Below, one piece after another: positions 25,740 to 53,494 of a stretch of 64,000 nt of DNA. A program made the position numbers and the translations under genes. The notes beneath the pieces are model-generated. The model had not been told where the DNA came from, did no database searches, and saw nothing but the letters and a program-made list of their open reading frames with translations. The stretch lies in NCBI RefSeq assembly GCF_056746865.1, contig NZ_CM163382.1; one strand, given 5' to 3'. The stretch's first letter is position 1; every line of letters begins with the position of its first letter.

Positions 25740-25813
25740 TGTAATGTTTCAACACCATGTATTAATTGTGTTTATTTGTAAAATTAATTTTTCTGACAAT
25801 AACATTTCTCATT

Positions 25814-25832
25814 GATAATGATAATCATTATT
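25814..25832 (+). promoter_or_regulatory. Fur box in the iucA promoter
   Basis: GATAATGATAATCATTATT matches the Fur consensus GATAATGATAATCATTATC at 18 of 19 positions, about 40 bp upstream of iucA. Confidence 0.85.
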
Positions 25833-25874
25833 GACATAATTGTTATTATTTTACTGTGTAGGAGCTGTTTGATT

Positions 25875-27599: not shown

Positions 27600-28547
27600 A
27601 TGTCTGGGGCAAACATTGTTCACAGCGGATATGGACTGCGCTGTGAAAAACTCGACAAGCCTCTGAATCTTGGCTGGGGGCTGGACAATAGCGCGGTGTT
27701 GCACTGGCCCGGGGAGCTGCCAACAGGATGGCTGTGCGACGCGCTGGATCAGATATTTATCGCCGCACCACAACTTTCAGCAGTGGTTCTTCCCTGGTCC
27801 GAATGGTGTGAGGAGCCACAGGCGCTGACGCTTTTCGGACAGGTACAAAGCGACATTATCCATCGTTCCGCTTTCTGGCAGTTACCGTTATGGCTGAGTT
27901 CTCCGGCAAACCGGGCCTCCGGTGAAATGGTTTTTGATGCAGAGCGTGAGATTTATTTCCCGCAGCGCCCCCCCCGTCCGCAGGGTGAAGTTTATCGTCG
28001 TTACGATCCACGCATTCGCAGGATGCTGAGTTTCCGCATTGCCGATCCCGTTTCTGATGCAGAACGTTTCACTCGCTGGATGAACGATCCGCGCGTTGAG
28101 TATTTCTGGGAGCAAAGTGGCTCACTGGAGGTACAGATCGCCTATCTGGAACGCCAGCTCACCAGTAAACATGCATTCCCGCTGATTGGTTGTTTCGACG
28201 ATCGGCCGTTCAGTTATTTCGAAATCTACTGGGCGGCGGAAGACCGCATTGGTCGCCACTATTCGTGGCAGCCCTTTGACCGTGGCCTGCATCTGCTGGT
28301 TGGTGAACAGCAATGGCGCGGAGCCCACTATGTGCAAAGCTGGCTGCGCGGGGTGACACATTACCTGCTGCTGAATGAGCCACGTACGCAGCGCACAGTA
28401 CTGGAGCCACGCACCGATAACCAGCGCCTGTTCCGCCATCTTGAGCCTGCGGGATACCGGACAATTAAAGAGTTCGACTTCCCACATAAACGCTCGCGCA
28501 TGGTGATGGCGGATCGTCATCACTTCTTCACGGAGGTCGGTCTGTAA
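27600..28547 (+). CDS. iucB: N6-hydroxylysine acetyltransferase IucB
   Basis: 315-aa ORF in canonical operon position. Confidence 0.9.
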   Translation: MSGANIVHSGYGLRCEKLDKPLNLGWGLDNSAVLHWPGELPTGWLCDALDQIFIAAPQLSAVVLPWSEWCEEPQALTLFGQVQSDIIHRSAFWQLPLWLSSPANRASGEMVFDAEREIYFPQRPPRPQGEVYRRYDPRIRRMLSFRIADPVSDAERFTRWMNDPRVEYFWEQSGSLEVQIAYLERQLTSKHAFPLIGCFDDRPFSYFEIYWAAEDRIGRHYSWQPFDRGLHLLVGEQQWRGAHYVQSWLRGVTHYLLLNEPRTQRTVLEPRTDNQRLFRHLEPAGYRTIKEFDFPHKRSRMVMADRHHFFTEVGL

Positions 28548-30289: not shown

Positions 30290-31563
30290 AAAAAAGTGTC
30301 GATTTTATTGGTGTAGGGACAGGGCCATTTAATCTCAGCATTGCTGCGTTGTCACATCAGATCGAAGAACTGGACTGTCTCTTCTTTGATGAACATCCTC
30401 ATTTTTCCTGGCATCCGGGTATGCTGGTACCGGATTGTCATATGCAGACCGTCTTTCTGAAAGATCTGGTCAGTGCTGTTGCACCTACAAATCCCTACAG
30501 CTTTGTTAACTATCTGGTGAAGCACAAAAAGTTCTATCGCTTCCTTACAAGCAGACTACGTACAGTATCCCGTGAAGAGTTTTCTGACTACCTCCGCTGG
30601 GCTGCTGAAGATATGAATAACCTGTATTTCAGTCATACCGTTGAAAACATTGATTTCGATAAAAAACGTCGATTGTTTCTGGTGCAAACCAGCCGGGGAG
30701 AATATTTTGCCCACAATATCTGCCTTGGTACAGGAAAACAACCTTATTTACCACCCTGTGTGAAGCATATGACACAATCCTGTTTCCATGCCAGTGAAAT
30801 GAATCTTCGTCGGCCGGACCTTAGTGAAAAACGGGTAACCGTGGTTGGTGGAGGACAGAGTGGTGCAGACCTGTTCCTTAATGCATTACGCGGGGAATGG
30901 GGAGAAGCGGCGGAAATAAACTGGATCTCCCGGCGGAATAATTTTAACGCACTGGATGAGGCTGCTTTTGCTGATGAGTATTTTACACCTGAATATATTT
31001 CAGGCTTCTCCGGACTGGAGGAAGATATTCGCCATCAGTTACTGGATGAGCAGAAAATGACATCGGATGGCATCACTGCCGATTCTTTACTGACCATTTA
31101 TCGTGAGTTGTACCACCGTTTTGAAGTTCTGAGAAAACCAAGAAATATCCGTCTGCTACCCAGCCGCTCGGTAACAACTCTGGAAAGTAGTGGTCCTGGC
31201 TGGAAGTTGCTGATGGAGCATCATCTGGATCAGGGCAGGGAGAGCCTGGAAAGTGATGTGGTGATTTTCGCCACAGGTTACCGTTCTGCGTTGCCACAAA
31301 TACTTCCCTCACTGATGCCGCTGATCACCATGCACGATAAGAACACCTTTAAAGTGCGTGATGACTTCACTCTGGAATGGAGTGGCCCGAAAGAGAACAA
31401 CATCTTCGTGGTCAACGCCAGTATGCAAACCCATGGCATCGCCGAACCTCAGCTCAGCCTGATGGCATGGAGATCTGCACGTATTCTTAATCGTGTAATG
31501 GGACGTGATTTATTCGATCTCAGTATGCCGCCCGCCCTGATTCAGTGGCGCAGCGGCACCTAG
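30286..31563 (+). CDS. iucD: L-lysine N6-monooxygenase IucD
   Basis: 425-aa ORF with N-terminal FAD-binding motif GVGTGPFN. Confidence 0.9.
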   Translation: MKKSVDFIGVGTGPFNLSIAALSHQIEELDCLFFDEHPHFSWHPGMLVPDCHMQTVFLKDLVSAVAPTNPYSFVNYLVKHKKFYRFLTSRLRTVSREEFSDYLRWAAEDMNNLYFSHTVENIDFDKKRRLFLVQTSRGEYFAHNICLGTGKQPYLPPCVKHMTQSCFHASEMNLRRPDLSEKRVTVVGGGQSGADLFLNALRGEWGEAAEINWISRRNNFNALDEAAFADEYFTPEYISGFSGLEEDIRHQLLDEQKMTSDGITADSLLTIYRELYHRFEVLRKPRNIRLLPSRSVTTLESSGPGWKLLMEHHLDQGRESLESDVVIFATGYRSALPQILPSLMPLITMHDKNTFKVRDDFTLEWSGPKENNIFVVNASMQTHGIAEPQLSLMAWRSARILNRVMGRDLFDLSMPPALIQWRSGT

Positions 31564-31644
31564 GGAAAACGCAGCCGGAGGCTGCTTCTTTAACTCGCTA
31601 CACAGCATCTTTGGGCTGATTTTTTCCGCCCGTGTGGAGGAATA

Positions 31645-33846
31645 ATGATGATAAGCAAAAAGTATACGCTTTGGGCTCTCAACCCACTGCTTCTTACCAT
31701 GATGGCGCCAGCAGTCGCTCAACAAACCGATGATGAAACGTTCGTGGTGTCTGCCAACCGCAGCAATCGCACCGTAGCGGAGATGGCACAAACCACCTGG
31801 GTTATCGAAAACGCCGAACTGGAACAGCAGATTCAGGGCGGCAAAGAGCTTAAGGACGCACTGGCTCAGCTGATCCCTGGCCTTGACGTCAGCAGCCGGA
31901 GCCGCACCAACTACGGTATGAATGTGCGTGGCCGCCCGCTGGTCGTGCTGGTTGACGGCGTGCGTCTCAACTCTTCACGTACCGACAGCCGACAACTGGA
32001 CTCTATAGATCCTTTTAATATCGACCATATTGAAGTGATCTCCGGTGCGACGTCCCTGTATGGCGGCGGCAGTACCGGTGGCCTGATCAACATCGTGAGC
32101 AAAAAAGGCCAGCCGGAAACCATGAAGGAGTTTGAGGCTGGCACCAAAAGTGGCTTTAGCAGCAGTAAAGATCACGATGAACGCATTGCCGGAGCTGTCT
32201 CCGGCGGAAATGAGCATATCTCCGGACGTCTTTCCGTGGCATATCAGAAATTTGGCGGCTGGTTTGACGGTAACGGCGATGCCACCCTGCTTGATAACAC
32301 CCAGACCGGCCTGCAGTACTCCGATCGGCTGGACATCATGGGAACTGGAACGTTGAACATCGATGAATCCCGGCAGCTTCAGTTGATCACACAGTACTAT
32401 AAAAGCCAGGGCGACGACGATTACGGGCTTAATCTCGGGAAAGGCTTCTCTGCCATCAGAGGGACCAGCACGCCCTTCGTCAGTAACGGGCTGAATTCCG
32501 ACCGTATTCCCGGCACTGAGCGGCATTTGATCAGCCTGCAGTACTCTGACAGCGCTTTCCTGGGACAGGAGCTGGTCGGTCAGGTTTACTACCGCGATGA
32601 GTCGTTGCGATTCTACCCGTTCCCGACGGTAAATGCGAACAAACAGGTGACGGCTTTCTCTTCGTCACAGCAGGACACCGACCAGTACGGCATGAAACTG
32701 ACTCTGAACAGCAAACCGATGGACGGCTGGCAAATCACCTGGGGGCTGGATGCTGATCATGAGCGCTTTACCTCCAACCAGATGTTCTTCGACCTGGCTC
32801 AGGCAAGCGCTTCCGGAGGGCTGAACAACAAGAAGATTTACACCACCGGGCGCTATCCGTCGTATGACATCACCAACCTGGCGGTCTTCCTGCAATCAGG
32901 CTATGACATCAATAATCTCTTTACCCTCAACGGTGGCGTACGCTATCAGTACACTGAAAACAAGATTGATGATTTCATCGGCTACGCGCAGCAACGGCAG
33001 ATTGCCGCCGGGAAGGCTATATCCGCCGACGCCATTCCTGGCGGCTCAGTCGATTACGACAACTTCCTGTTCAACGCTGGTCTGCTGATGCATATCACCG
33101 AACGCCAGCAGGCATGGCTCAACTTCTCCCAGGGCGTGGAGCTGCCGGACCCGGGTAAATACTATGGTCGCGGCATCTATGGTGCTGCAGTGAACGGCCA
33201 TCTTCCTCTAACAAAGAGTGTGAACGTCAGCGACAGCAAGCTGGAAGGCGTGAAAGTCGATTCTTATGAGCTGGGCTGGCGCTTTACTGGCAATAATCTG
33301 CGCACCCAAATCGCGGCCTACTATTCGATTTCTGATAAGAGCGTGGTGGCGAATAAAGATCTGACCATCAGTGTGGTGGACGACAAACGCCGTATTTACG
33401 GCGTGGAAGGTGCGGTGGACTACCTGATTCCTGATACTGACTGGAGTACCGGAGTGAACTTCAACGTGCTGAAAACTGAGTCGAAAGTGAACGGTACCTG
33501 GCAGAAATACGATGTGAAGACAGCAAGCCCATCAAAAGCGACAGCCTACATTGGCTGGGCACCGGACCCGTGGAGTCTGCGAGTGCAGAGCACCACCTCC
33601 TTTGACGTGAGCGACGCGCAGGGCTACAAGGTCGATGGCTATACCATCGTCGATTTGCTTGGCAGTTATCAGCTTCCGGTGGGTACACTCAGCTTCAGCA
33701 TTGAAAACCTCTTCGACCGTGACTACACCACTGTCTGGGGGCAGCGTGCGCCACTGTACTACAGCCCGGGTTACGGCCCTGCTTCACTGTACGGCTACAA
33801 AGGCAGGGGCCGCACCTTTGGTCTGAGTTACTCAGTATTATTCTGA
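31645..33846 (+). CDS. iutA: Ferric aerobactin TonB-dependent outer-membrane receptor IutA
   Basis: 733-aa ORF, signal peptide, TonB-dependent receptor features, C-terminal aromatic residue; operon context. Confidence 0.9.
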   Translation: MMISKKYTLWALNPLLLTMMAPAVAQQTDDETFVVSANRSNRTVAEMAQTTWVIENAELEQQIQGGKELKDALAQLIPGLDVSSRSRTNYGMNVRGRPLVVLVDGVRLNSSRTDSRQLDSIDPFNIDHIEVISGATSLYGGGSTGGLINIVSKKGQPETMKEFEAGTKSGFSSSKDHDERIAGAVSGGNEHISGRLSVAYQKFGGWFDGNGDATLLDNTQTGLQYSDRLDIMGTGTLNIDESRQLQLITQYYKSQGDDDYGLNLGKGFSAIRGTSTPFVSNGLNSDRIPGTERHLISLQYSDSAFLGQELVGQVYYRDESLRFYPFPTVNANKQVTAFSSSQQDTDQYGMKLTLNSKPMDGWQITWGLDADHERFTSNQMFFDLAQASASGGLNNKKIYTTGRYPSYDITNLAVFLQSGYDINNLFTLNGGVRYQYTENKIDDFIGYAQQRQIAAGKAISADAIPGGSVDYDNFLFNAGLLMHITERQQAWLNFSQGVELPDPGKYYGRGIYGAAVNGHLPLTKSVNVSDSKLEGVKVDSYELGWRFTGNNLRTQIAAYYSISDKSVVANKDLTISVVDDKRRIYGVEGAVDYLIPDTDWSTGVNFNVLKTESKVNGTWQKYDVKTASPSKATAYIGWAPDPWSLRVQSTTSFDVSDAQGYKVDGYTIVDLLGSYQLPVGTLSFSIENLFDRDYTTVWGQRAPLYYSPGYGPASLYGYKGRGRTFGLSYSVLF

Positions 33847-33910
33847 CAGGAATTCTTTGGAAACAAAGGTATGTTGATATAAGGGCCTTCCCTGATCATG
33901 GTGGGAAGGC

Positions 33911-35145
33911 TCAAAACGCCATATTCAGTTTCCCGTAGTGGAACATCACGCCCAGCTTAAAGCGTTCCCGATTGCGGTATCCCCTGGCTTTTATCCTCAG
34001 CAGCCTGAGCTTACTGTTAAGCGCCTCCGCGTTTCCGTTTGAGACACGGTGTCGCATGGCATTCAGGATCCCATACAGCCTTTTTCCTATCGTTTTCGTG
34101 GCGTTTTTCATCATAGTAATGTCACTGTTGGCCGCCAGAGCCAGCAATCTCTCCCACTCATTACGTCTTTCCTCACTTCATGGCCTGTTCCAGATATTCT
34201 TTGCCAGCTCTTTCAGCGCCCAGCACAGGCTTGTCAGCTTCATCTGTGCACGCAGCCATATCAGCTTTTCCTGCCTGGATTCGGTCATCCATTTATCGTT
34301 GTACTGCCACAGGAAGCGGGTCCCCTTTGCCTGACGCCGACTTTCAACAGGGAGGTGTGGATGTTCATCCTGACGGATTTTATCAACTACTTCACCAAGT
34401 TGCTTTGCTACATGGAAGCGGTCGAAGGCGATTTTCTCAACCGCACAGGGTAAGTGGATACGCGCTGCTCTTATACAGCCTGCATTCATGTCCATTGAGA
34501 GCGTTTTGATAGCCAGCAACTGCCCGTCAGTAAGCGTGCGAAGATAGCCGGCGAGGCTCTCTGTGCCACGATCGTCCGTTAAGGCCAGTGCACGACCATC
34601 GCGATCGGAGATCACAGTTATATAACAATGTCCTTTTTTAAAGGCGACCTCATCCACATTCATATGACGGGCGGATAATGGCTTTTTTATCCGGGCAAGA
34701 CCTCGCTTAACTGCCCGGGTCATAATGCCGTCAACCGCATTCCAGCTGAGCTTAAGTTGTTTCCTTACAGCATCAACAGTGCTGATTTTCAGCCATGAGA
34801 GAACGAGTCGAACAGCAGCGTATACCGCCTTCCGGGGCCAGCCCAGGGAACTAGCAACGTCTGGCAGCCATGCTCCGGGCACATAATGCGGGGCACATCG
34901 GCTTCGACAATAGTGGTGAACTGGCAGATATCAAGATGACGCCATTTACGATGACGGTGATCGTGAACAGAACAGGATTTACCGCAGGTCGGACAGGCTA
35001 ACCGGGCATTTTTAGCGATTCCAACTGTGACGGTAACAGAACCGGCGTTTTCATCGAGAGAAAGATATTTAACCTGCCATGGAGCGGTCAGGTTGATAAT
35101 ATGAGCGTAGAGGGACCTTTCGTCCATGGCGGTGACCTTTGGCAA
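33911..35145 (-). pseudogene. ISL3-family transposase, split into three frames by frameshifts
   Basis: N-terminal zinc-finger (CPTCGKSCSVHDHRHRKW...CPEHGC), core DRFHVAKQLGE, C-terminal GYRNRERFKLGVMFHYG; ORFs 34789-35145, 34178-34882 and 33911-34147. Confidence 0.65.
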
Positions 35146-35430
35146 TTAAAACACCATCATCATGCCTTCAGCCACCATAACAAGGGAAAACCCTGATATA
35201 CGGCCTTAAAAAGATATTCCGTCTCCGGAACGGACTGCTCACCACTGAATAACATTATGCCTGTTTTATGTATCTTTGACTGAAATTTATCGCATATCCT
35301 CATTTCATTGCCCGTATGAAAAGGTAAGCGAAAACCTACTGCCGTAGTAGCCATTGAGTAGTATTGGTAACATAGGTGCCAACATTTCAACTGATCTGCG
35401 CTAAGATCTTGGGTATTCTATGAAAAATGT

Positions 35431-36100
35431 GGTAGTGCTTCCAATCAGTAGAACATGTTCTTTTCAATGACGGAACCGATGACTTTTTCGTTGATTTTCA
35501 CGGAACGCGAGAAGCAGATTGTTTTACGTGCCAGCCGCTTGATGCGGGTGCGGAGGGGCAGGTTGTTAAGTTCAATAGGTTGCGTGAATATTTTACCGGT
35601 CAGGTATTTCTCCTTCGTCACTTCTCTGACGTTGCAGCCCCTGTCATTGCTGGTCACTATGCCGATATAGAACGAAGTCAACAGGGCTAACAGTTCCCGA
35701 CAGGTCTCATCATTCCGTGGCCCGAAAGAATAAGCCAACACACCGCAGTTTTAGTGTTGTAAGCAGACCAGTGTTGTTGCGCCTTGCTGCCAACGAAATT
35801 TAACTGCTCATCAAGTTTCAAAGATAAGGGCAACATCAGCGTGAACGACTGGCGTAGATGTTATCCGCCGGGGCGAAAACATTTTTAATGTCCGTATGAC
35901 GGTATTGATGCCGATTTTCAGTGTTCATGGGTATCACGGACACCTGCGCCGTTATGTGCCATTTCAACGATCTGCTCCTTAACGCCGGGTTTCCTGACTT
36001 CACCAAGAGTAAGTGAGCTGGAAAACATGTTTTACATGAGCGACAACGGAAACGCTCATCTCGGGAACGTGTTCTTAACGGTTAGACTGGCCCCCCTGAA
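35431..36100 (-). mobile_element. Second IS1-family copy (degraded; one terminus unclear)
   Basis: End sequence ggtagtgcttccaatcagtagaacat parallels the IS1 copy at 15189; InsB-like ORF 35445-35741 and degraded InsA-like reading near 35900-36060. Confidence 0.55.
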
Positions 36101-36435
36101 TCACCTGCAGTTGAAGGACAGTAACAGGTTAAGTGATAACAGATGTCTGGAAATATAGAGGTAAATCCAAGGAAGTGCCACTTTTCATCCGTTGTTGACA
36201 ATACAGCAAAACTTGATGCTATTCGTACGCCCACAATGGAATGTGGATTCAAACTGAATATTCCGTTTGTTGATATGAGTGATTTGGGCAACGGTGGCAA
36301 CAAATAACTTTATACAGGAGCTGACGGTGTTTTCCTGATCATGCCGCCCATATTTTCTTCGGAGGTCGGGGACTTTCAATACCTTCCCCCGACACTCTAT
36401 GACTTCACAAGATTGTCTCCATGACTGCTATGTGC

Positions 36436-37314
36436 CTACAGATGTTGCTCTCTGGTTGTTGTACTAGTCGGGAGATCCTGTGGATCGACATTTTCCTTCG
36501 CGTGAGCATTGATGCTGGAAGCGGTAAACGTCAGGATGAATACAACCGTGAATAAGATAACAATCGTTGGTGCTGGTGCGCTGTCTATAAAAAAGGAGAG
36601 CCATACACCAGTCATTGAGACCATTACCGATATACCGAGCGCCAGCAGGAGCGCAATATGAAAGCGTTGCGTCAGGAGTACCGCAATGGCGCCAGGCGCA
36701 ATGAGCAGAGAAATGGAGAGAATGATACCTACCGCTTTCAGCGTCGCCACAATGGTCAGAGAGACCATGCACAGCAGCCCATAATGCAGCCATCTCGTAT
36801 GCAAACCGCTTACCTGCGCCTGTTGATAATCAAAGCTGAACAGCAAAAAATCCCGCCATTTTACGCTAATAACAAGTGTAACCAGCCCGGCAATAATCAC
36901 CGTCTGGATTATATCGCCGATGGTTACCCCGAGCATGTCGCCGAAAAGAATATGGTCAAGATGTACGTCGGGTTTGACTGCAATATACAAGATCAGACCT
37001 GCGGCAAACATGCCAGAAAAAACAATCCCCATCACTGTATCTTGCTTGATTCGGCTGTTGTCTTTCAGGTATCCCGTCGCCACCGCGCAGAATACTCCGG
37101 CGACGAATGCTCCTCCCGCCAGAGGAAAACCCAGTATCCACGCAAGCACGATACCAGGAAAAACCGCATGACTCATCGCGTCTCCCATCAGTGCCCAACC
37201 TTTCAGGACCAGAAAGACCGACAGCAGCGCACAGGGTATGGAAACTACCAGTGAAATCAGCAGTGCGTGACTCATAAAGGTGAACTGCAGTGGCTCCAGT
37301 AATAATGCCATCAT
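36436..37314 (-). CDS. sitD: Mn/Fe ABC transporter permease SitD
   Basis: Multi-TM permease, last gene of sitABCD. Confidence 0.85.
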   Translation of the reverse strand: MMALLLEPLQFTFMSHALLISLVVSIPCALLSVFLVLKGWALMGDAMSHAVFPGIVLAWILGFPLAGGAFVAGVFCAVATGYLKDNSRIKQDTVMGIVFSGMFAAGLILYIAVKPDVHLDHILFGDMLGVTIGDIIQTVIIAGLVTLVISVKWRDFLLFSFDYQQAQVSGLHTRWLHYGLLCMVSLTIVATLKAVGIILSISLLIAPGAIAVLLTQRFHIALLLALGISVMVSMTGVWLSFFIDSAPAPTIVILFTVVFILTFTASSINAHAKENVDPQDLPTSTTTREQHL

Positions 37315-38168
37315 GAGCGATCCTCCAGCACCTTATGCGCACGCTGACGATTTGCCAAAAGCCCATGGGTGGGTGCAAAGACAAATGCTAAAAGAAACAG
37401 CAGTGTCTGCGCCACCACGATGATTCCACCTGTCGCTCCGTCCAGAAAGTAACTGACCCACGCGCCGAGGAAACTGGTTACACTGCCAATAGTTACAGCA
37501 ATCACGAGCAGGCGGGGAAAACGATCGGTTAACAACCATGCTGTTGCGCCAGGGGTCACTACCAGACAGATCACCAGAAAAGCCCCAACCGTTTGCAATG
37601 CTGCAACGGTCGATACCGCCAGCAGTGTGAAGAAGAGGATTTTTAATCTTCCTGGATATAATCCAATAGCACGGGCGTGATTTTCGTCGAAAAAGGTCAC
37701 CATAAGATCTTTCCATTTGAAAAAGAGCACTATGACTGAGACAATGCCAATGATAGTGAGTTGCAGGATATCCGCCGGAGCGATTGCCAGAATATTGCCC
37801 AGGACGATGGTCTGAATATTTACGGATGTCGGGTTTAATGACACCATAAACAGCCCCAGGCCAAAAAAGGACGAGAAGATCAGGCCGATGATGGCATCTT
37901 CTTTTAAGCGAGTGCGTTGGTTAAGAAACAGCATGCTGCCCGCAGCCAGTCCACCGGAAAAGAAGGCCCCCAGAGAAAACGGAAGCCCCAGCATATATGC
38001 CCCCGCAACACCCGGGACGATAGAGTGCGACAGCGCATCGCCAATCAGCGACCAGCCTTTTAGCATCAGATAGCATGACAGGAAAGCGCAGAGACCGCCG
38101 ACCATCGCCGCGACCCACATCGCATTGAGCATATATTCATAGCTGAAGGGTTCCAGTAGCACGTTCAT
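37311..38168 (-). CDS. sitC: Mn/Fe ABC transporter permease SitC
   Basis: 285-aa multi-TM permease; overlapping stops/starts. Confidence 0.85.
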
Positions 38169-38992
38169 CTTTCTTCCCTCTGCACCGCTGATGGTCGATA
38201 AGCCACAAAGGGGCGTTCATCGTCAGTAATAATGCTTTCTTCCGAGCCTTTAAGTGTGACATGGCGTAGTACGCCGCTAAAAGCCAGCTCCAGGTTCTCG
38301 GCTGTAAAAGTGGTGTCTGTCGGCCCGCTTGCCAGGACGGTGCCTTTGACCATGACCGTATAATCGCAAAATGTCGTGACGGATCCGAGATTGTGCGTTG
38401 AGACAAGCATCGTTTTGCCTTCCGCGCGTAACTCCCTCAACAGGCTGATGATTTTGGCTTCGGTTTTCACATCAACGCCGGTAAAAGGTTCATCCAGCAG
38501 GATCACATCACCCTGCTGTGCAATCGCTCTCGCCAGAAAGACGCGTTTCTTTTGTCCACCGGAAAGCTCGCCGATTTGTCGATGGCGAAAATCTACCATA
38601 TCGACACGTTCCAGCGCATCGGTGACAACCTGACGATCCCTCTTATTGGCTATACGCAACATACCCATATGCCCATAGCGGCCCATCATCACCACATCTT
38701 CCACCAGTACAGGAAAGGACCAGTCCACTTCTTCTGACTGCGGGACGTAGGCAATCAGGTTTTTCTGCAGAGCCTGCCGCGTGGGAATACCCAGAACAGA
38801 TATCTTTCCGGTAGTCAGACGCACGAATCCCATAATCGCTTTAAATAACGTCGATTTTCCGGAACCGTTTACCCCAACCAGAGCGGCAATAGATCCGCCT
38901 GGTACTGTGAAGGATGCATCGCGCAGTGCTGTGTGCCCGTTACGCCAGGTGACAGTAACGCCATTAACGACAATACCCGCAGATTGCATCAT
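38165..38992 (-). CDS. sitB: Mn/Fe ABC transporter ATP-binding protein SitB
   Basis: Walker [10 protein letters not shown] and ABC signature LSGGQKKRV. Confidence 0.9.
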
Positions 38993-39906
38993 TACTTCTC
39001 CCTTTTCCCGGCTTTAATTCCCTGCACCAGCGTACTGGTAGTAACCTTCAGAAGGTCGATATACGTAGGTACCGGGCCGTTTTCTGTGCTCAGGGAATCG
39101 ACATAGAGCACACCGCCGTAGTGTGCGCCGGTTTCACGCGCAACCTGACGCGCTGGTTTATCGGAAACCGTACTCTCACTAAATACCGCTGGGATATTAT
39201 TTTTCTTCACTATATCAACCACTTTACGTACCTGCTGGGGTGTTCCTTGTTGATCGGCATTTATCGGCCACAGATAAAGCTCTTTTAGCCCCAAATCGCG
39301 TGCGAGATAAGAAAAAGCCCCTTCACTGGTGACCATCCATCTTTTATTCTCAGGGAGTTCAGCAATCTGCTTACGCAGGGGGGCAAGGGTTTGGGTAATC
39401 TTGGCTTTATAAGTATCGGCATTACGTTGGTATGTTTTTGCATTTGCCGGATCGTATTTTATCAACGCATCACGAATATTATCGACGTAAATCAAAGCAT
39501 TATCTGGTGACATCCAGGCATGAGGGTTAGGTTTTCCCTCGTAGGGGCCTTCGGTGATCCCTACTGGCGTCACACCCGAAGAGACAATCACTTCTGGAAC
39601 ACCATTGAGATGCTGGTAAAAGCGCTGGAACCACAATTCCAGATTCATTCCATTGGCGAGAATCAGTTGTGCCCCCTGCGCACGTTTAATATCGCCAGGG
39701 GTAGGCTGATACTCATGAATTTCCGCACCGGGCTTGGTTATGGATGAGACTTCTGCAACATCTCCAGCCACGTTTTTGGCCATATCTGCGATGATGGTAA
39801 ATGTTGTAATGACCTTGAATTTTTCAGTTGCACTCGCCTGAAATGCGATCGAGCAGGTGAGGGCGAGGAACCCCAAGAGCATGGTTAATTTTTTTATTGA
39901 GTGCAT
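38992..39906 (-). CDS. sitA: Mn/Fe ABC transporter periplasmic binding protein SitA
   Basis: 304-aa ORF with signal peptide; first gene of the operon. Confidence 0.9.
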
Positions 39907-46690: not shown

Positions 46691-47143
46691 TTATGTTGTT
46701 GGCACTACAGATGAATGATGGGATGATATTTTCCAATCCTTTCCATCCCACTCATAAGCGAAACTATAGCGTGCTGAAACTTGTTTTTTATCTTCAAAAG
46801 TAAACGTGTAATTCCCTGTATCAAGAGCCATATTGCATCCAATGCGAATAGTTCTGAAGTTTATTTCTCCAACAGGTTTTTTTTTCAAAAAATGCTCAAA
46901 ATAGTCAACTCTTTCTGCATCTGTAATCCTAATTTTTTTTGATACTGTGGGCAGTAAGATCGCATCACTTAAATAGTTATCAGCAACCTTCTTGGCATCA
47001 CCTGTTTTTAATGATTCATTCCAGCGATCGAATAACCTTTCAATGTCTTTACTATCTACCCGAATACACTTAACATTATCTACGTCACTTGCCCACGACG
47101 CTCCAGAAAACAGACACAGAATTAAAATATTTATTTTTTTCAT
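46691..47143 (-). CDS. Secreted hypothetical protein, possibly NTF2/SnoaL-like fold; AT-rich gene
   Basis: Signal peptide MKKINILILCLFSGASWA; 150 aa; fold guess is from general sequence character only. Confidence 0.4.
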   Translation of the reverse strand: MKKINILILCLFSGASWASDVDNVKCIRVDSKDIERLFDRWNESLKTGDAKKVADNYLSDAILLPTVSKKIRITDAERVDYFEHFLKKKPVGEINFRTIRIGCNMALDTGNYTFTFEDKKQVSARYSFAYEWDGKDWKISSHHSSVVPTT

Positions 47144-47385
47144 AACTCCTCCTGATCAGCCTGAAACTTTTTTAAAGTTTAATCATATTAATACAGTGCA
47201 ACTATTTGATAGTAAAAACGATGTTCTCTATTTTGTTAATAGATACTTCCTATTGTGTATATATTATGAGATTATTAAGAATAATACTCTCTGGGTCGTA
47301 GAGACAGGGTATAAGTCACAGGCTGGTGTGGTTCGGATGTTCTTGCCCCCTCAATATCAGACTGCTATTGTATCTTAAGTTAACG

Positions 47386-47739
47386 TTATCCGCTGACGTC
47401 GATATTCCCGTGGTGAGAGATAACCTAACGCACTATGCGGATGGTTTTCATTGTAATGCTCGAACGCCTCTGCAAGGTTATGCAATGCCGTTATTACATT
47501 CAGTTTCGGCATGAACGCGATGTAGTCTTCATTCACGTTTTCACGAACCTTTCTGCCATTCTATTGCTCTGAGGGCTACTGACTGCCGTCGTGCAGGGCT
47601 CCAGATTCAACTCTCTGGCGAATTGCCGTGTTTCATGAGCCGTATAAGCCGAACCGTTATCCGTCCGCCACTGGATTGCTCGTTCCGGTCCTTTATCGCC
47701 AAAGCGTTTTTCTATCGCTCCTAACATCACATCCTGCAC
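47386..47739 (-). pseudogene. IS3-family OrfB (integrase core) C-terminal fragment
   Basis: [45 protein letters not shown] and downstream [14 protein letters not shown]. Confidence 0.55.
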
Positions 47740-48503
47740 TGTCGGCTTTATCGTAACCTCCCGTACTGGTCACGGGCAGACTGTTCATCATGTTAAACCC
47801 AGCCGCTGTCAGATCATGCACCGGCCGGATGGCGGGCTGACCTGCCCCGCCGCGCTGCTGCCCGCCAATCCATTTCTTACCTTCCTTCCCGGTGGCCTGA
47901 CGTCCGGCCTCGTCCCCTTTCACCGCATCACCGTCACCGCTGTTCACCACCTTCTTGTACTCTTCCAGCATCGCTGGCCTGCGTCCATTTGCTGCGATCA
48001 GAAAAGTCCATCATCCGTTTTGCCATGTTCTGGCAGTTCAGTTACGCCTTGTCGAAAGCCACATTCGCCTGCAGCACACCGTTGGTGATCATGTCGTACA
48101 GGCCGGGGTTGGCACGCTGTATCACCATCGCCGGCAGACTGGCAGCGGCGCCGGTCGCCCCCTAAATCACATCCCCCATCAGATTTTTAAAGCCGTCGGT
48201 CAATCCGTTAAGATGATTACCCACCGTGGTCTTCAGGTCAAAGTTGCCGCACATCAGATCGCTGCTCCAGCCCAGGTCCATACCCAGCTTCTGCATGTTG
48301 CTGCGCGTGGCCAACTGTGAGATCACCGAGCCGCCACCCAGCGTATAGAACAGTTTGTCGGATACGGCGCCATCCACGGATTTCCCGTAACCGAACGTGC
48401 TGTCATTCAGTTTCGGCAGGGAAAGAAGATCAGCCATCGCCGGAATACTGCAGTACAGCATCACACTCAGTGCCACCATACCTGTTTTCATCTTCATCAT
48501 CAT
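47740..48503 (-). pseudogene. Exported protein of a conjugative-element operon (weak TraH-like guess), interrupted by in-frame TAG at 48159-48161 and truncated by the IS3 fragment
   Basis: Signal peptide MMMKMKTGMVALSVMLYCSIPAMA; reading frame continues past TAG (GATGAAASLPAMVIQRANPGLYDMITNGVLQANVAFDKA); family assignment is weak. Confidence 0.3.
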
Positions 48504-48509
48504 GGTTCC

Positions 48510-48872
48510 TTAAAAATTCGTACTGCCAAGGAATCGCTGCCCGCGCTTTTCGAAGCAGCTGTAAGGCTGCCACAGTGCAAAGGCTGCATTACCGTTCTCC
48601 GCCGCCTGGTGTTCACCATCCGGGAAAACGGCACAGGAACGCGACACTGACGGCGTCAGTCGCTGCCATTTGTGATTGCGGGTGCCGGTGTTTTCCTCCA
48701 CCGCCTCCGGGGGCCAGTAGCCGTCACGTTTCACGCCCTTAACCTCCCTGTAGACATGCGACTCCCCCATCCGCGTGATAATGTCGGCCACCCGCTGAGC
48801 CCCCACCGCCGCGGCCCGGTCATCATCGCTCTGCATCACAAAACCACTCCGGTGATAAACGCTCCCCCACAT
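48510..48872 (-). CDS. Hypothetical protein in the same operon remnant
   Basis: 120-aa ORF between two signal-peptide genes; no family recognised. Confidence 0.3.
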   Translation of the reverse strand: MWGSVYHRSGFVMQSDDDRAAAVGAQRVADIITRMGESHVYREVKGVKRDGYWPPEAVEENTGTRNHKWQRLTPSVSRSCAVFPDGEHQAAENGNAAFALWQPYSCFEKRGQRFLGSTNF

Positions 48873-48953
48873 GTTTTTATCGGCCTAGCTGCCAATCTCG
48901 CGTTTGCCGGGAACCTGTGCCTCTGGATACAGGGATTCAGGTAATCCCGTTCG

Positions 48954-49484
48954 CTAGACGATGCTGTCCAGGGTACTGAGGAAATAGGCCATGGCCGGTG
49001 TCACCGGTGAATCACAGCTGAATCCGGGTACCATCCCGCCGATAAGCTGTGTGGCCGGATGACCCAGCGCATCTGCATATTTGAAACGAATTGCTGAACG
49101 GCGCTTCCCCTGTATTTTCATATCCGCCGGATTTCCCCCGCCGGCACTCAGCCCGGACAGGCCGTCAGTGATGGCATTCTCCGGGCCACCTGCGGTCCGG
49201 CTGACCAGCGACATCTCTTTCCAGGGATTACCACCCGGTGCCGTATAGGTGGAAATAACCACTTCCGGGATGAAATGTGTCACCTTCACGGAAATTCTGA
49301 CCGTACAGCCAGACGCGCTGCAGTAAAGCCAGTAACAAATCCCGCTGACACGCCAGCTGATATAGTCCGGTGCCGCAGTACTGGCGATAATGCTGGCGGT
49401 GTTCAGTGATACAGACGCCAGGGGCAGTGATGCCACACTCAGTAACAGCACGCCGGTACGCAGACGACATTTCAGGGACATCAT
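48954..49484 (-). CDS. Exported hypothetical protein, cysteine-containing, conjugative-element-like
   Basis: Signal peptide; start ATG overlaps the upstream gene stop (ATGA coupling at 49481-49484). Confidence 0.4.
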   Translation of the reverse strand: MMSLKCRLRTGVLLLSVASLPLASVSLNTASIIASTAAPDYISWRVSGICYWLYCSASGCTVRISVKVTHFIPEVVISTYTAPGGNPWKEMSLVSRTAGGPENAITDGLSGLSAGGGNPADMKIQGKRRSAIRFKYADALGHPATQLIGGMVPGFSCDSPVTPAMAYFLSTLDSIV

Positions 49485-49876
49485 GGCTGCACTCCTCCCT
49501 CAGCACGGATTTTCCCGGCCATCACCACATCCATGGTGCCGTAAACCACCTCACTGTCATCAAACACCACGGCAGGGTATTTCTTCACGCCCAGCGACTA
49601 GGCATGTGCCACATCGCGGTAATGACCGGCCAGTTCCGCCTGCATCGTCTGCCATTCGGGAGACTTCATACGTACCCTGACCACCGATTCAGCCTCACCC
49701 GCATCAGCAGGCAACAGGCCCCAAAAGCGGCTCTGAAGCTGCTCAGGCGCATCCAGCAGAACCACCCTGACACCATCAGGAGGATTAACGGGAAGATGCT
49801 GAGAATCGGTATAAATTGTTGTGCCGGCAGACGCTGCCAGCGGCAGGAAAAACAGGGAACAGAAAATCCGGTACAT
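49481..49876 (-). pseudogene. Exported thioredoxin-fold-like protein (TrbB/DsbA-like guess) with in-frame TAG at 49598-49600
   Basis: Signal peptide MYRIFCSLFFLPLAASA; frame continues after TAG for 39 codons to a TGA that overlaps the next start. Confidence 0.35.
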
Positions 49877-50071
49877 CGTACACCTCAGTCAGATATTATC
49901 TGACTGACAGCGTGCGAAGAAAGCGCTCATTTATCAGCAATAAATTAAAAACGGGATTAAAAAATTACGGTGGGATCCGGGGAAGTGTATCTGCCAAGCA
50001 TAACAGACAGTCTGTGATTATACCCGGCCTTTCACAAAGCCGGGGAACTGATTCATACCAAGTGGTGATTT

Positions 50072-50323
50072 TCAACAATAAGTATAATGAGGTTGTCCCG
50101 GCACCGGTGGCAGTGGTTCGAGATAGACGTCATCAACAAAAACACAGGGGAATTTTTCAACTGCACATCCAGCACGCTCAGACATTACCTTCAGACTGAT
50201 ACCATGTTTCTCAGCATCAATAAAGAGGACATCTGCCCCTGTTTCATCCCGGAGATTTGTCGCATGATGCATGATCCGGTGTACTGAAGGACATGTTTTG
50301 TAACCAAAAACACATATACGCAT
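50072..50323 (-). CDS. Small glutaredoxin/thioredoxin-like protein (tentative)
   Basis: MRICVFGYKTCPSV... resembles a glutaredoxin-type N-terminus; start taken at internal Met. Confidence 0.35.
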   Translation of the reverse strand: MRICVFGYKTCPSVHRIMHHATNLRDETGADVLFIDAEKHGISLKVMSERAGCAVEKFPCVFVDDVYLEPLPPVPGQPHYTYC

Positions 50324-50809
50324 GTTGCACCTCCTGATCACTGGTTGACGCCGATAATAAAACAATAATGTGAGCGTAAAAAATGCACCTCATACCACAT
50401 TTCTGTAAAAGGCTCTGGCTATCACTGCAAAAAGCAAAATCTTAATTCCAGCATCACTTGTTACTCTCATTCCGTCACTTATATTTACCCACATGGCGAT
50501 GTATTTAATTACTGCCCATAAGAATAAAAGCCGCTGGCGGATTATTTCTTTATTACCCGGATGCGGTCACAAGCCCACACATCGTCAACTACCTGCCGGT
50601 AATATTAACTGTCAGAAGAACGCATACATCCGGATGTTTACAGAGTCGCGCGCCTGGTCACAGGTGACAACAGAAGTATGCCATACTAAAGGAGTAAACG
50701 GCGGGTCACTGGTGATCAAACACCTGCATCGTGTGTTGCTGCCACTGCCCTCAGGTGACAGAGGCAGCATCTTTACGTATTATAATGCGTTATATCGGGT
50801 TTGTTGTTA

Positions 50810-52897
50810 TCAGAACTGATAGTTCAGCGACATCCAGTAATTTCTCTCAGGTATCACATAACCCGTTGTCGATGCCCCCGTCTGGAAGTAATCACCCGCA
50901 TAAAGCGTACCACTGCCGGCACGATACAGACTTACGTCACTGTAATCCTTGTTAAGCACATTATTCACCGCTGCATTCAGCATCAGTGCATCCGTCACTT
51001 TCCACGACATGCCCGCATCCAGTACCGTCCAGGCTTTCAGATATTCACCTTTCTCATCATACACTTTCTTCTGTACAGCTGAGAGTGACGAATAATTCTG
51101 GGTGAAACGTGGCGTTTTCCCGCGGTAACGGGCACCCAGCCATGATGTCACCTCTTCAGTAATCTGCCAGTTCAGTTTCGCATTCACCATATGCTCAGGG
51201 GTGTAACTCAGTGGTGCACCTTTATTATCCCCATCCCGTTGTTCACTCTGCGTCCAGGTATAATTCAGAGACAGAGTCACATCCTCTGACAACAGAGGCA
51301 GTGTGCCGGCAAATTCCACGCCCTGAGTCCTAGCCTTTCCGCTGTTTGTGTAGCTGCGGGTATTATCATCAATGGAATAAGATACGATCTTGTTGGAGAA
51401 TTCTGTCATAAAGCCCGTGATATTGGCGTTCAGACCGGCATGATTATCGTAATACACGCCCGCTTCATAACTGACACTCTCCTCCGGCTTCAGGTCCGGG
51501 TTACCGAGAAGATTCGTACGCCCCTGACCGGACACACCGCTGATCCCCTTATGTAACTGCCCCATGCTGGGCGCCTTATATCCCGTGGTCACCCCACCTT
51601 TCAGCGTCCACGCATCAGTCACATCCCAGACCATATATGCCCGGGGACTGAAGTGTCCTCCGAACACCTCATAGCGTTCATAGCGGCTACCCGCAGTCAG
51701 TGCAAATGCATCCGTGATATACCACTCATCCTCAACAAATGCCGACCAGCTTTTCTGACGGAAGGTTTCACCAGTACTGGCGAGAACAACCCCGTCTTTC
51801 ATGGAGGAGTTCTGATACTCACCACCGACGGTAACCTTGTGTGATTCCCCCAGAGGTGCAAACAGTAATGAGCTCAGGATAAGATTCGACTCCTTAAGCT
51901 CCCTCGGCTGGCCGGCAAGCCCCCATTTATCACGCTGCAGTACGCTACGTACAAGCTGACGGCCTTTATTTTCCGTCTCATTCCAGTTCAGAGATGACTT
52001 CCAGGCTCCGAAGGTGAATGTATGATCATAGCCTGCTGAAATTTTATTACGCTCATAGCGCAGGGTGCGATCATAACCGCCCGTCAGACTGCCCAGCTGG
52101 CCATCTCGGTTATCATAACGCTGCCGGGCGATATCCATATCAATCCAGAGTACATCCTTGTCCGTCGCTTTCCAGTCAAGACGACCACCTGCATTATAAT
52201 TCTGTGATTCCGTGGGATAAGGGATACGCGTAGCTGAGGTGTCGCTCAGTGATGTGACCGATGAGCCCTGACGCTGCTGTGTGCTGCCACGTACCTGAAG
52301 GCTGAGTGAATCATCCACAAGGGGACCGCTGCTCCAGAAATTAAACTGGCTGCTGTTCCCCCATTTGTTACTTTCCTGCAGGTTCAGCCCGGCATTAACC
52401 GAAGAGCGCCATTTGTCTGCATTCTTTTTGGTGATGATATTCACCACGCCCCCCATGGCATCAGAGCCGTACAGAGTGGACATGGGGCCCCTGATAATCT
52501 CAATACGTTCGATGGCGGCCAGAGGTGGCATAAAACCCGTATTCATGGCAGCATAACCGTTTGGGGTTACGTCACTGCTCCCGCCCTGACGGACACCATC
52601 GATCAGTATCAGCGTATAACTGGCAGGCATTCCGCGGATGCTGATTTCGAGCCCACCTGTTTTACCCGTACCGCTTTCAACATCCACCCCCTCTACGGAT
52701 CTCAGTGCCTCCCCCAGATCATGATACTGGCTGGATCGCAAATCCTCCTGGCTGATCACTGAAACACTCGCAGCTGCACTGGTTAATTTTTTTTCATAGC
52801 CAGACGCCGTGACTACCATCACATCTTCCGCAGCCATACTGCTGACTGAAAACCCGAGACAAGGGATGGCTACTGAAGCCAGAGTGGTTACTCGCAT
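50810..52897 (-). CDS. iha: TonB-dependent outer-membrane receptor/adhesin, Iha-like (IrgA homolog adhesin)
   Basis: 695-aa ORF, signal peptide, plug and barrel features, C-terminal ...WMSLNYQF; close resemblance by memory to Iha; RBS ggagag. Confidence 0.75.
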   Translation of the reverse strand: MRVTTLASVAIPCLGFSVSSMAAEDVMVVTASGYEKKLTSAAASVSVISQEDLRSSQYHDLGEALRSVEGVDVESGTGKTGGLEISIRGMPASYTLILIDGVRQGGSSDVTPNGYAAMNTGFMPPLAAIERIEIIRGPMSTLYGSDAMGGVVNIITKKNADKWRSSVNAGLNLQESNKWGNSSQFNFWSSGPLVDDSLSLQVRGSTQQRQGSSVTSLSDTSATRIPYPTESQNYNAGGRLDWKATDKDVLWIDMDIARQRYDNRDGQLGSLTGGYDRTLRYERNKISAGYDHTFTFGAWKSSLNWNETENKGRQLVRSVLQRDKWGLAGQPRELKESNLILSSLLFAPLGESHKVTVGGEYQNSSMKDGVVLASTGETFRQKSWSAFVEDEWYITDAFALTAGSRYERYEVFGGHFSPRAYMVWDVTDAWTLKGGVTTGYKAPSMGQLHKGISGVSGQGRTNLLGNPDLKPEESVSYEAGVYYDNHAGLNANITGFMTEFSNKIVSYSIDDNTRSYTNSGKARTQGVEFAGTLPLLSEDVTLSLNYTWTQSEQRDGDNKGAPLSYTPEHMVNAKLNWQITEEVTSWLGARYRGKTPRFTQNYSSLSAVQKKVYDEKGEYLKAWTVLDAGMSWKVTDALMLNAAVNNVLNKDYSDVSLYRAGSGTLYAGDYFQTGASTTGYVIPERNYWMSLNYQF

Positions 52898-52946
52898 ATC
52901 TTCTCTCCGATTATATTAATCAGAGAGAAGATAAACAAACGCAAGA

Positions 52947-52963
52947 GATAATGAGAATGATTT
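52947..52963 (-). promoter_or_regulatory. Fur-box-like sequence upstream of iha
   Basis: GATAATGAGAATGATTT about 50 bp upstream of the iha start. Confidence 0.55.
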
Positions 52964-53221
52964 GCTTTTGGTTTTTACATAAAAAAGCAAAAAATTACAA
53001 AATATTACATAAGGTTCTACTATACCCCGAATTTCAGTTGAGGACGTTCTTTTCTCTAGGGGAAAGTAACGGATAGCAATCGTTGACGATCCATATCGGA
53101 TTTTTGCACTATGGGTATTTATCCAATCTTTATCAGTTTCTTGTCCTTGGATATGTTAATCATACACTATCGGATATTTCGTACATCAGACAGGTGAATA
53201 TAATTAATAATGAGGAGTTTT

Positions 53222-53494
53222 ATGGACAATAGAACAATTACTCTGCAGGAATTACTCGAGTACATGTCAATGCTTCGAGACGACATGAATGCTCTCACGG
53301 TTGCATTTTCATATCTGGCTTCATCGCTTCCTAAGGAACAGATGATACAAATACTGGCATTCATTCATTTTGAATCAAATAATTCCAGATGGTCTTCAGA
53401 ACAGCAGAAATCTTTCAAATGGCTAGCATCACTACTGGAGGGCTGTTATACAGTTCACACAAACATTTTTGATATACCATCAAAGAACCACTAG
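53222..53494 (+). CDS. Hypothetical protein, 90 aa, AT-rich
   Basis: RBS aggag 5 nt upstream of ATG 53222; no family recognised. Confidence 0.35.
   Translation: MDNRTITLQELLEYMSMLRDDMNALTVAFSYLASSLPKEQMIQILAFIHFESNNSRWSSEQQKSFKWLASLLEGCYTVHTNIFDIPSKNH

Follow-up and report, generated by a model that had tools for sequence, protein, structure and literature searches.

The minus strand of the window, by which is meant the whole 64-kb stretch of DNA that was analysed, carries three pseudogenes between positions 47761 and 49876 that are very probably the non-functional leftover of the mating-pair-formation module of an ICEEc2/ICEEc8-like integrative conjugative element (ICE). The module is of the MPF_G type, which is also described as the ICEclc/SPI-7/pKLC102 type. 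The remnant very probably has no activity today and is a marker of how the iha allele of the window arrived. As a molecular fossil it points to this divergent allele having arrived as the cargo of an ICEEc2/ICEEc8-type ICE and not as the classical TAI or GI-pheV iha. Identical sequence is already annotated by RefSeq in dozens of E. coli genomes, with PGAP calling the genes pseudogenes, and the finding is therefore real, ordinary and already known.

Family assignment and layout of the remnant

Profile searches assigned all three exported proteins to conjugation families specific to ICEs. The product of the pseudogene at 49481–49876 matched TIGR03757 with 115.2 bits against a cut-off of 73.2 (E = 1.6e-33) and Pfam DUF1525 (2.6e-30). 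The full-length pseudogene at 48510–49484, encoding a TraU-like (IceU-like) periplasmic conjugation protein, matched positions 1–297 of the 298 in TIGR03756 with 371.6 bits against a cut-off of 188.35 (E = 2.8e-111). The pseudogene at 47761–48503 is the 5' half of a TIGR03755-family gene, covering residues 1–247 of 472 with a signal peptide at the start; its N-terminal part matched profile positions 1–137 with 192.6 bits (E = 1e-56), and the remainder, in a shifted frame, matched positions 135–200 (1.2e-21). With only positions 1–200 of the 419 in the profile surviving, the score of this fragment falls short of the cut-off of 270.45. The intact 472-residue gene of the ICE in strain MS15052 scores 546.8 bits, and since the fragment shares 96.6% nucleotide identity with that full-length gene its homology is secure and the gene is truncated. 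Nucleotide identity to the intact MS15052 genes was 93.4% for the TIGR03757 and 96.0% for the TIGR03756 pseudogene. The E-values exclude a chance resemblance. The initial annotation had suggested a T4SS or ICE origin, which these searches bear out, and had called the family assignments weak, when in fact they are strong, with TIGR03757 and TIGR03756 above their curated cut-offs and TIGR03755 matched strongly in part.

The same annotation had also raised TraH, TraF and TrbB as possible families. Derivation from an F-type (MPF_F) plasmid transfer region containing TraU, TraH, TraF and TrbB would account for the Pfam TraU match of the middle gene (160.7 bits, 7e-47), but is extremely unlikely: the best and only NCBIfam matches were to the ICE-specific families TIGR03755, TIGR03756 and TIGR03757, no TraH, TraF or TrbB match was obtained with the TIGR03757 and TIGR03755 products of the window or with the intact 472-residue TIGR03755 orthologue, and the gene order follows that of ICEclc and of the pheV ICEs of E. 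coli. The module is thus of the GI/ICE type.

Four co-oriented ORFs, as first proposed, run on the minus strand from 50323 to approximately 47761. Their stop and start codons had been described as overlapping, which holds at a single junction, the ATGA at 49481–49484 between TIGR03757 and TIGR03756. The stop codon of TIGR03756 (48510–48512) is separated by 6–9 nt from the next start (48503 or 48500), and 195 nt lie between the glutaredoxin-like ORF and TIGR03757. The signal peptides predicted for three of the ORFs could be read directly from the sequence as typical Sec-type N-termini, MYRIFCSLFFLPLAASA (followed by G), MMSLKCRLRTGVLLLSVASLPLASV and MMMKMKTGMVALSVMLYCSIPAMA (followed by D), and the ICEclc orthologues are reported to be SPI-positive (PMC10018362, Table 1). 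The order DUF1525, TraU-like, TIGR03755 on one strand was the same in four E. coli ICEs and in ICEclc, so that the synteny comparison proposed at the outset gave agreement in both order and orientation with intact elements.

DNA identity to the MS15052 ICE was 95% over 47761–49956 and 93% over 50737–53011. Comparison of the whole window by blastn and tblastx with a segment of approximately 100 kb from the MS15052 chromosome that contains the ICE of about 78 kb detected no other ICE backbone in the 64 kb; the further matches to that region were limited to IS matches and a stretch proximal to the attachment site. The VirB4/TraC-like ATPase and TraG_N, which flank the module in intact ICEs, were missing from the window, as were a relaxase, a coupling protein and the remaining T4SS genes, and the three genes that are present are damaged; the window therefore lacks the complete intact set, integrase included, of a functional ICE. 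It had been left open whether the island descends from an ICE or captured part of one; a captured or retained part fits better, since these two segments are all that match the ICE. Promoter and terminator sites across 47600–53300 were no more numerous than in shuffled sequence.

Lesions, decay and distribution

Relative to the intact MS15052 ICE the three genes carry four TAG codons, one TAA codon, a +1 frameshift and a truncation. The TIGR03757 pseudogene contains a TGG to TAG change at 49598–49600 (W93), exactly where it was first noted. The TraU-like gene contains TGG to TAG at 48954–48956 (W177) and CAG to TAG at 48885–48887 (Q200), and carries the PGAP tag 'internal stop'. In the TIGR03755 fragment CAG is changed to TAG at 48162–48164 and CAA to TAA at 48042–48044, an additional A is inserted at 47975, and the 3' truncation at 47761 removes the C-terminal 48% of the protein. 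An earlier count of two interrupted genes with one TAG each was consequently too low, omitting both stops of the TraU-like gene as well as the TAA and the 1-bp insertion; the second amber codon it listed does exist but had been placed at 48159–48161. The stops in the TraU-like gene were probably overlooked because the gene was read as separate ORFs. The fragment product WP_001470070.1 is at present a 'hypothetical protein' in PGAP, and its annotation should be changed to that of a TIGR03755 pseudogene fragment.

All five nonsense changes are G:C to A:T transitions from TGG, CAG or CAA. A special meaning for the excess of TAG among the stops was considered and dropped, since ordinary transitions of this kind account for all five. 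Every lesion is derived relative to four intact ICEs. The allele of VTB97379v, at 99.6% identity, shows only part of these lesions and retains CAG at two of the TAG sites, indicating that the decay was stepwise. Approximately 59 complete E. coli genomes, isolated from a range of hosts and countries, carry the remnant at an identity of at least 99%, and in the loci inspected PGAP annotates TIGR03756 and TIGR03757 as pseudogenes with internal stops. The dN/dS ratio was 0.42 between the remnant and the intact ICE, compared with 0.19 between two intact ICEs.

These data bear on whether the genes could still encode a working periplasmic module, the amber codons being sequencing errors or suppressed in the cell. 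TAG, which accounts for four of the five premature stops, is the codon suppressed most readily, yet this explanation is hardly conceivable. The same stops occur in the roughly 59 independently sequenced complete genomes and there is an intermediate allele, which establishes the amber codons as genuine; a TAA, a frameshift and the loss of the TIGR03755 C-terminus accompany them, dN/dS is raised and the other T4SS genes are absent from the window. It is also very unlikely that the truncated N-terminal fragments, which still have their signal peptides (a 176-residue TraU-like, a 113-residue TIGR03755 and a 92-residue DUF1525 product), are kept as exported decoys against the T4SS of an incoming related ICE (exclusion), or that the rare monothiol glutaredoxin-like ORF of the spacer acts as a partner of the iha allele.

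The left boundary of the ICE remnant is an IS3-family 3' fragment at 47334–47767 on the minus strand, which encodes a frameshifted C-terminal rve/rve_3 integrase core without its N-terminus (Pfam rve_3 7e-15, rve 5e-8). At the same place in LS45 PGAP gives 'integrase core domain-containing protein, frameshifted, missing N-terminus'. The last gene of the series had been described as truncated by this IS3 fragment, and it does end against an IS3-family piece with an rve domain; however, the piece is itself truncated at its 5' end, so the junction at 47761–47767 is a deletion end-point and not an IS terminus. The fragment is approximately 91% identical to IS3-family copies on plasmids. A plasmid origin for the remnant was tried and rejected, as plasmid collections gave only IS3 fragments and one match of 75% over 655 bp to a Pantoea plasmid ('integrating conjugative element protein').

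The iha block and the adjoining spacer

The iha block (50737–53011, minus strand) contains an intact iha coding sequence at 52897–50810, encoding 695 residues, with approximately 115 bp of upstream and 70 bp of downstream sequence. The product scored 1538.7 bits against the NF010012 equivalog (cut-off 924), residues 1–695 aligning with profile positions 1–696, and PGAP lists the identical protein, WP_001266790.1, as Iha. Identity to the MS15052 ICE is 93.4% over the block and 94.7% over the coding sequence, compared with only about 86% over 50800–52985 for the iha of O157 and CFT073. By sequence the iha of the window is an ICE-type allele. Its intact reading frame and dN/dS of 0.14 are consistent with purifying selection. 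The dS relative to the MS15052 ICE was 0.17 for iha and 0.08 for the T4SS genes, and this approximately two-fold difference suggests that the two parts may differ in their recombinational history. In the MS15052 ICE a 72-bp direct repeat lies on either side of iha; both copies are absent from the window.

A 780-bp spacer (49957–50736) containing the glutaredoxin-like ORF lies between the iha block and the T4SS genes. No counterpart was detected by blastn in the ICEs of MS15052, E19035, G8 and SI-NP020, where 385 bp of unrelated backbone is found instead. Among complete E. coli genomes the spacer was limited to the remnant lineage (59 records at an identity of at least 99%), apart from a homologue of approximately 70% identity in an unrelated island.

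The ORF within it (50072–50323, minus strand) encodes 83 residues from an ATG, or 97 from a TTG at 50365, with weak similarity to glutaredoxin-1. Its scores against the GrxA models were 33.4 bits for NF008401 (cut-off 84) and 26.9 bits for TIGR02183 (cut-off 106.5), too low for assignment as a glutaredoxin, and CPSV is read where the CPYC active site would be expected. Matches in the PDB were weak only (1ego, E = 6e-4) and no Pfam domain was detected in the ORF. A homologue of 69% identity is present in a non-ICE island of GPEC1040. A collection of 5.8 billion proteins contained 13 clusters of the ORF, in which every cluster with a named source and every inspected locus was of E. coli type; the two contigs inspected from these clusters were a noisy assembly of the same remnant and a short unrelated contig. 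When 100,044 species-representative genomes were scanned for the motif of the ORF in degenerate form, there were no matches. No intact ICE with the spacer or the ORF was found in the complete E. coli genomes, the protein collection or the species-representative genomes. The ORF is cargo or filler and not a T4SS gene, and its earlier inclusion as a thioredoxin-fold-like fourth member of the module is not upheld, as it sits in a spacer absent from the intact ICEs examined.

The structure of this region raises the alternative that the island acquired the ICE fragment and the iha block separately, for example by IS-mediated shuffling. Independent juxtaposition of this kind would explain why a non-homologous spacer replaces the ICE backbone between the two parts, why homology to the ICE ends 20–40 bp into the repeats on either side of its iha, and why dS differs between them, and the island is a strongly rearranged, IS-rich mosaic. 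It is nevertheless unlikely, because iha is on the same strand and immediately upstream of TIGR03757, as in the iha-carrying ICEs, the allele is of the ICE-borne type (95% against 86% for the widespread O157/CFT073 allele), and ICE backbone still extends for 80 bp upstream of TIGR03757. A common arrival of iha and the T4SS genes on one ICE is the preferred reading.

Known relatives and proposed origin

The intact relatives share the minus-strand order VirB4/TraC-like ATPase, 128-residue ORF, cargo slot, DUF1525, TraU-like IceU, TIGR03755, 119-residue ORF and TraG_N. One E. coli ICE lineage has iha in the slot, APEC E19035 and G8 have nothing there, and SI-NP020 has other cargo. The closest relative described here, the unnamed ICE of MS15052 (NZ_CP082097, approximately 3.3145–3.3925 Mb), is about 78 kb long and located at tRNA-Phe (pheV), with a backbone annotated as uninterrupted that includes an integrase, TraI, type IVB pilus genes, TraD, the full TIGR037xx set, ParA/ParB/DnaB and TopoIII; its iha lies between the ATPase/128-residue ORF and TIGR03757. 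Near-identical ICEs are present in GPEC102, GPEC172 and FDN-4. The window resembles the MS15052 ICE in the three genes (93–97% nucleotide identity), their order and strand, and the position of iha directly upstream of TIGR03757. It differs in having only 2.2 kb of backbone, as pseudogenes, a different 780-bp segment and no 72-bp iha repeats.

Elements of the ICEEc2 type are reported to be active in clinical E. coli, and ICEEc2 itself was reportedly described by Roche et al. in 2010. ICEEc8 of an O117:H7 strain is a pheV ICE with iha (ORF52) as cargo (Montero et al., 2019; PMC6455142). As judged from the published description, ICEEc8 and ICEEc2 (pKLC102/PAGI-2 family, pheV/pheU) would belong to the same ICE family as the remnant and share its tRNA-Phe target. 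One difference is that ICEEc8 carries sigA, which was found neither in the window nor in the inspected stretches of the MS15052 ICE.

The more distant ICEclc of Pseudomonas is functional and has an identical module, consisting of the ATPase IceB4, the slot, orf57827, IceU orf56883, TIGR03755 orf55476, a 119-residue ORF and TraG_N (Daveri et al., 2023; PMC10018362). Its slot contains dsbA and radC in place of iha. The TIGR03755 and TraU-like IceU orthologues are essential for ICEclc transfer, while the DUF1525 orthologue, orf57827, a thioredoxin-like protein with a signal peptide (Table 1 of the same paper), is partly required (PMC10018362). The slot between the ATPase and DUF1525 is thus documented as a cargo site in ICEs of the ICEEc2/ICEEc8/ICEclc type.

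The window also resembles the GI-pheV-type mosaic islands of E. coli, in the portion of their description drawn on here (PMC11537424), in consisting of IS-separated modules, namely shiF-iucABCD-iutA, sit, yee and iha, and the modules around the remnant have been deleted and inverted as blocks. In that portion iha is assigned to the intP4.1 GI-pheV of strains including CFT073, and an adjacent ICE remnant is not mentioned; the CFT073 allele shares only about 86% identity with that of the window.

Under the preferred reading an iha-bearing ICE would once have been present in this lineage, probably at pheV and, as in MS15052, in tandem with the neighbouring island. Deletions and inversions mediated by IS elements would then have removed everything except the selected cargo iha and its hitch-hiking neighbours. 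A deletion has fused TIGR03755 to a truncated IS3 copy. This is the usual fate of an ICE, in which selected cargo is retained and the genes for transfer are lost to deletion and mutation. No new biology is shown and the practical consequences are small, an iha-carrying ICE having already been published as ICEEc8. The remnant can be used as a lineage marker, and the lineage that carries it, which includes SMS-3-5, is common among poultry, wild-bird and human isolates.

Conjugation genes and their intact relatives

The three larger genes of the remnant were assigned by NCBIfam to ICE-specific conjugation families. The TIGR03757 gene (131 codons, 49876-49481) scored 115.2 bits against a cut-off of 73.2 (E=1.6e-33) and the TIGR03756 gene (324 codons, 49484-48510) 371.6 bits against a cut-off of 188.35 (E=2.8e-111). 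The TIGR03755 gene (48503 to ~47761) matched profile positions 1-137 of 419 (E=1e-56), with positions 135-200 continuing in a different frame past a frameshift. Pfam matches to DUF1525 and TraU were also found; a Pfam search of the remnant products gave no TraH, TraF or TrbB domain. The initial annotation had called the family assignments weak, but the NCBIfam evidence is strong.

All features of the locus lie on the minus strand and are described 5' to 3' on that strand. An intact iha gene of 695 aa (52897-50810) is followed by a small glutaredoxin-like ORF of 83 aa (50323-50072) and, after a 195-nt gap, by the TIGR03757 gene, which overlaps the TIGR03756 gene at an ATGA; the TIGR03755 gene begins 6-9 nt further on and ends against an IS3-family fragment containing rve and rve_3 domains. 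The last ICE-homologous position is 47761 and IS3 homology extends to ~47767, in agreement with the earlier description of the last gene as cut off there. As the IS3 copy itself lacks its 5' part, the junction is a deletion end-point. Directly left of the remnant, between IS fragments, is a 150-aa ORF (46691-47143) with a signal peptide and a SnoaL/DUF4440-like fold, annotated by PGAP as an SgcJ/EcaC family oxidoreductase, which accompanies the remnant in E. coli LS45, PKF11 and VTB97379v.

The closest intact relative, at 95% identity, was the ~78 kb ICE at tRNA-Phe of E. coli MS15052. This element carries an integrase, a TraI-domain relaxase, a type IVB pilus cluster, TraD, the whole TIGR037xx T4SS set, a TraC-like ATPase, TraG_N, ParA, ParB, SPI-7-type DnaB and TopoIII, with the order ATPase, 128-aa ORF, iha, TIGR03757, TIGR03756, TIGR03755, 119-aa ORF, TraG_N. 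ICEclc has the same backbone order; its TIGR03755 and TraU-like (IceU) genes are indispensable for transfer, and there is a partial requirement for its DUF1525 gene, the predicted product of which is exported and thioredoxin-like (PMC10018362, Table 1). The gene order in the window agrees with both elements and, together with the NCBIfam families, supports the original proposal that these are T4SS conjugation components.

The window is of E. coli origin, and identical or near-identical remnant DNA was present in ~59 complete chromosomes of this species from chicken, human and wild-bird sources, as well as in strain SMS-3-5. More distant matches were ICEs in which TIGR03757, TIGR03756 and TIGR03755 are annotated uninterrupted.

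Lesions and stepwise decay

Lesions were mapped codon by codon against the MS15052 ICE genes. The TIGR03757 gene contains a TGG to TAG change at W93 (49598-49600), and the TIGR03756 gene contains TGG to TAG at W177 (48954-48956) and CAG to TAG at Q200 (48885-48887). The TIGR03755 gene has CAG to TAG at 48162-48164, CAA to TAA at 48042-48044, a 1-bp insertion at 47975 and the loss of everything past residue 247 of 472. The initial annotation, essentially correct apart from errors in coordinates and counts, had recorded only two TAG codons, where four were mapped in addition to the TAA and the insertion; its first was confirmed, and its second lies at 48162-48164 and not 48159-48161.

Sense codons occupy every lesion site in all four intact ICEs compared. 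The VTB97379v copy (NZ_CP178682, 3001-5156; 99.6% identity to the window) already has the ambers at 49598 and 48954, the TAA, the insertion and the truncation, and keeps CAG at 48885 and 48162, so that two of the four ambers have not yet formed; it shows the same remnant at an intermediate stage of decay. It follows that the stops are genuine and arose in steps. Sequencing error, the alternative raised initially, is contradicted by this intermediate allele and by the same DNA in ~59 chromosomes. The VTB97379v locus also has an IS3-family element between remnant and iha, and a 152-aa 'hypothetical protein' called by PGAP.

The dN/dS ratio was 0.42 between the remnant and the intact ICE; two intact ICEs compared with each other gave 0.19, and iha gave 0.14. 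These values fit a relaxation of constraint on the T4SS genes with constraint on iha continuing. The remnant is dead, with no likely present function. In RefSeq genomes 48162-48500 is annotated as a plain 'hypothetical protein', WP_001470070.1; this ORF covers the first 112 residues encoded by the TIGR03755 pseudogene and merits re-marking as a pseudogene fragment. In E. coli FDN-4 (NZ_CP158026, 2018-6083) an iha-carrying ICE has TIGR03755 split by an IS21-family insertion, with the inspected neighbours intact, which is an independent first inactivation step of this gene.

The iha gene and the adjoining spacer

Only 47761-49956 (95.0%) and 50737-53011 (93.4%) of the window match ICE DNA, the latter block comprising iha and short flanks. 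The window iha (50810-52897) is 94.7% identical to that of the MS15052 ICE and 93-95% identical to ~20 ICE-borne copies, compared with ~86% DNA identity to iha of O157:H7, CFT073 and ~1,600 other E. coli records, so that iha falls into two separate lineages carried by different vehicles. Its position, its strand and the type of allele all point to a source in an iha-carrying ICE. ICEEc8, at pheV of O117:H7, provides a precedent with iha as ORF52 (PMC6455142), and activity is known for ICEEc2-type ICEs at pheV and pheU. Since this precedent is published and the remnant genes are already labelled by PGAP in public genomes, the novelty of the remnant is low.

The iha position is a cargo slot among the compared ICEs: it is empty in the APEC E19035 and G8 ICEs, holds an AraC-family gene and others in the SI-NP020 ICE, and is occupied by dsbA and radC in ICEclc (PMC10018362). 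In the MS15052 ICE the ~2.3-kb iha insert lies between 72-bp direct repeats, 93% identical (22488-22559 and 24892-24963 of the extracted locus), which duplicate the 3' end of the 128-aa ORF adjoining the ATPase gene; the iha-free APEC E19035 ICE has a single copy. This pattern hints at how iha may have entered the slot. The derivation of the locus from an iha-carrying ICE has its caveats: the repeats were not found in the window, the dS of iha was two-fold higher than that of the T4SS genes, and the spacer described below is foreign to the ICE backbone. The segment GATAATGAGAATGATTT at 52947-52963, which precedes the iha start by ~50 nt and lies within the block common to all iha contexts, is a candidate Fur box, judged by resemblance to the consensus.

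Between TIGR03757 and iha, 780 unrelated bp (49957-50736) replace 385 bp of ICE backbone and contain the glutaredoxin-like ORF. Its similarity to glutaredoxin-1 is weak (GrxA models 33 and 27 bits, cut-offs 84 and 106.5; PDB 1ego, E=6e-4), with the motif CPSV instead of CPYC. The ORF is very rare, with 13 clusters in 5.8 billion proteins (source-named clusters and inspected loci being E. coli-type) and no match to its motif in 100,044 species-representative genomes. Searches of E. coli complete genomes, a large protein collection and species-representative genomes yielded no intact ICE with the spacer, and the sole homologue of the ORF (69% aa identity) sits in a non-ICE island. The ORF is therefore not a T4SS-module gene, and of the four genes first proposed as a module, the three T4SS genes stand. 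An ICE variant not yet sampled, or a recombinant, was probably the direct ancestor.

The surrounding island

Elsewhere the window consists of a mosaic island riddled with IS elements and containing a yee/CP4-44-like module, YadA-like genes, shiF-iucABCD-iutA, sitABCD and sodC. Rearrangements set this island apart from close relatives such as PKF11 and PK8276. It is of the type described for GI-pheV (PMC11537424). The ICE fragment is one of many IS-bounded modules, and tblastx of the full 64 kb gave no further ICE backbone genes. Of the two origins first offered, retention or capture of part of an ICE is the one that fits; the island is not ICE-descended as a whole.

At its left end (1-266) the window begins inside the 5' part of a P4-like integrase gene on the minus strand. 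Positions 115-266 share 91% identity with the MS15052 segment that separates a tRNA-like attachment repeat from the integrase of an island lying just past the ParA end of the ICE, which suggests tandem islands at one tRNA site. ARAGORN found no tRNA in the window, which would thus hold at most a partial tRNA 3' end.

Within 24546-39906 the shiF-like MFS gene, iucABCD-iutA (25812-33846, plus strand) and sitABCD (39906-36436, minus strand) all appear intact, with ISL3 and IS1 fragments between them. The iucD gene is an open 425-codon frame in the window and is frameshifted in PKF11.
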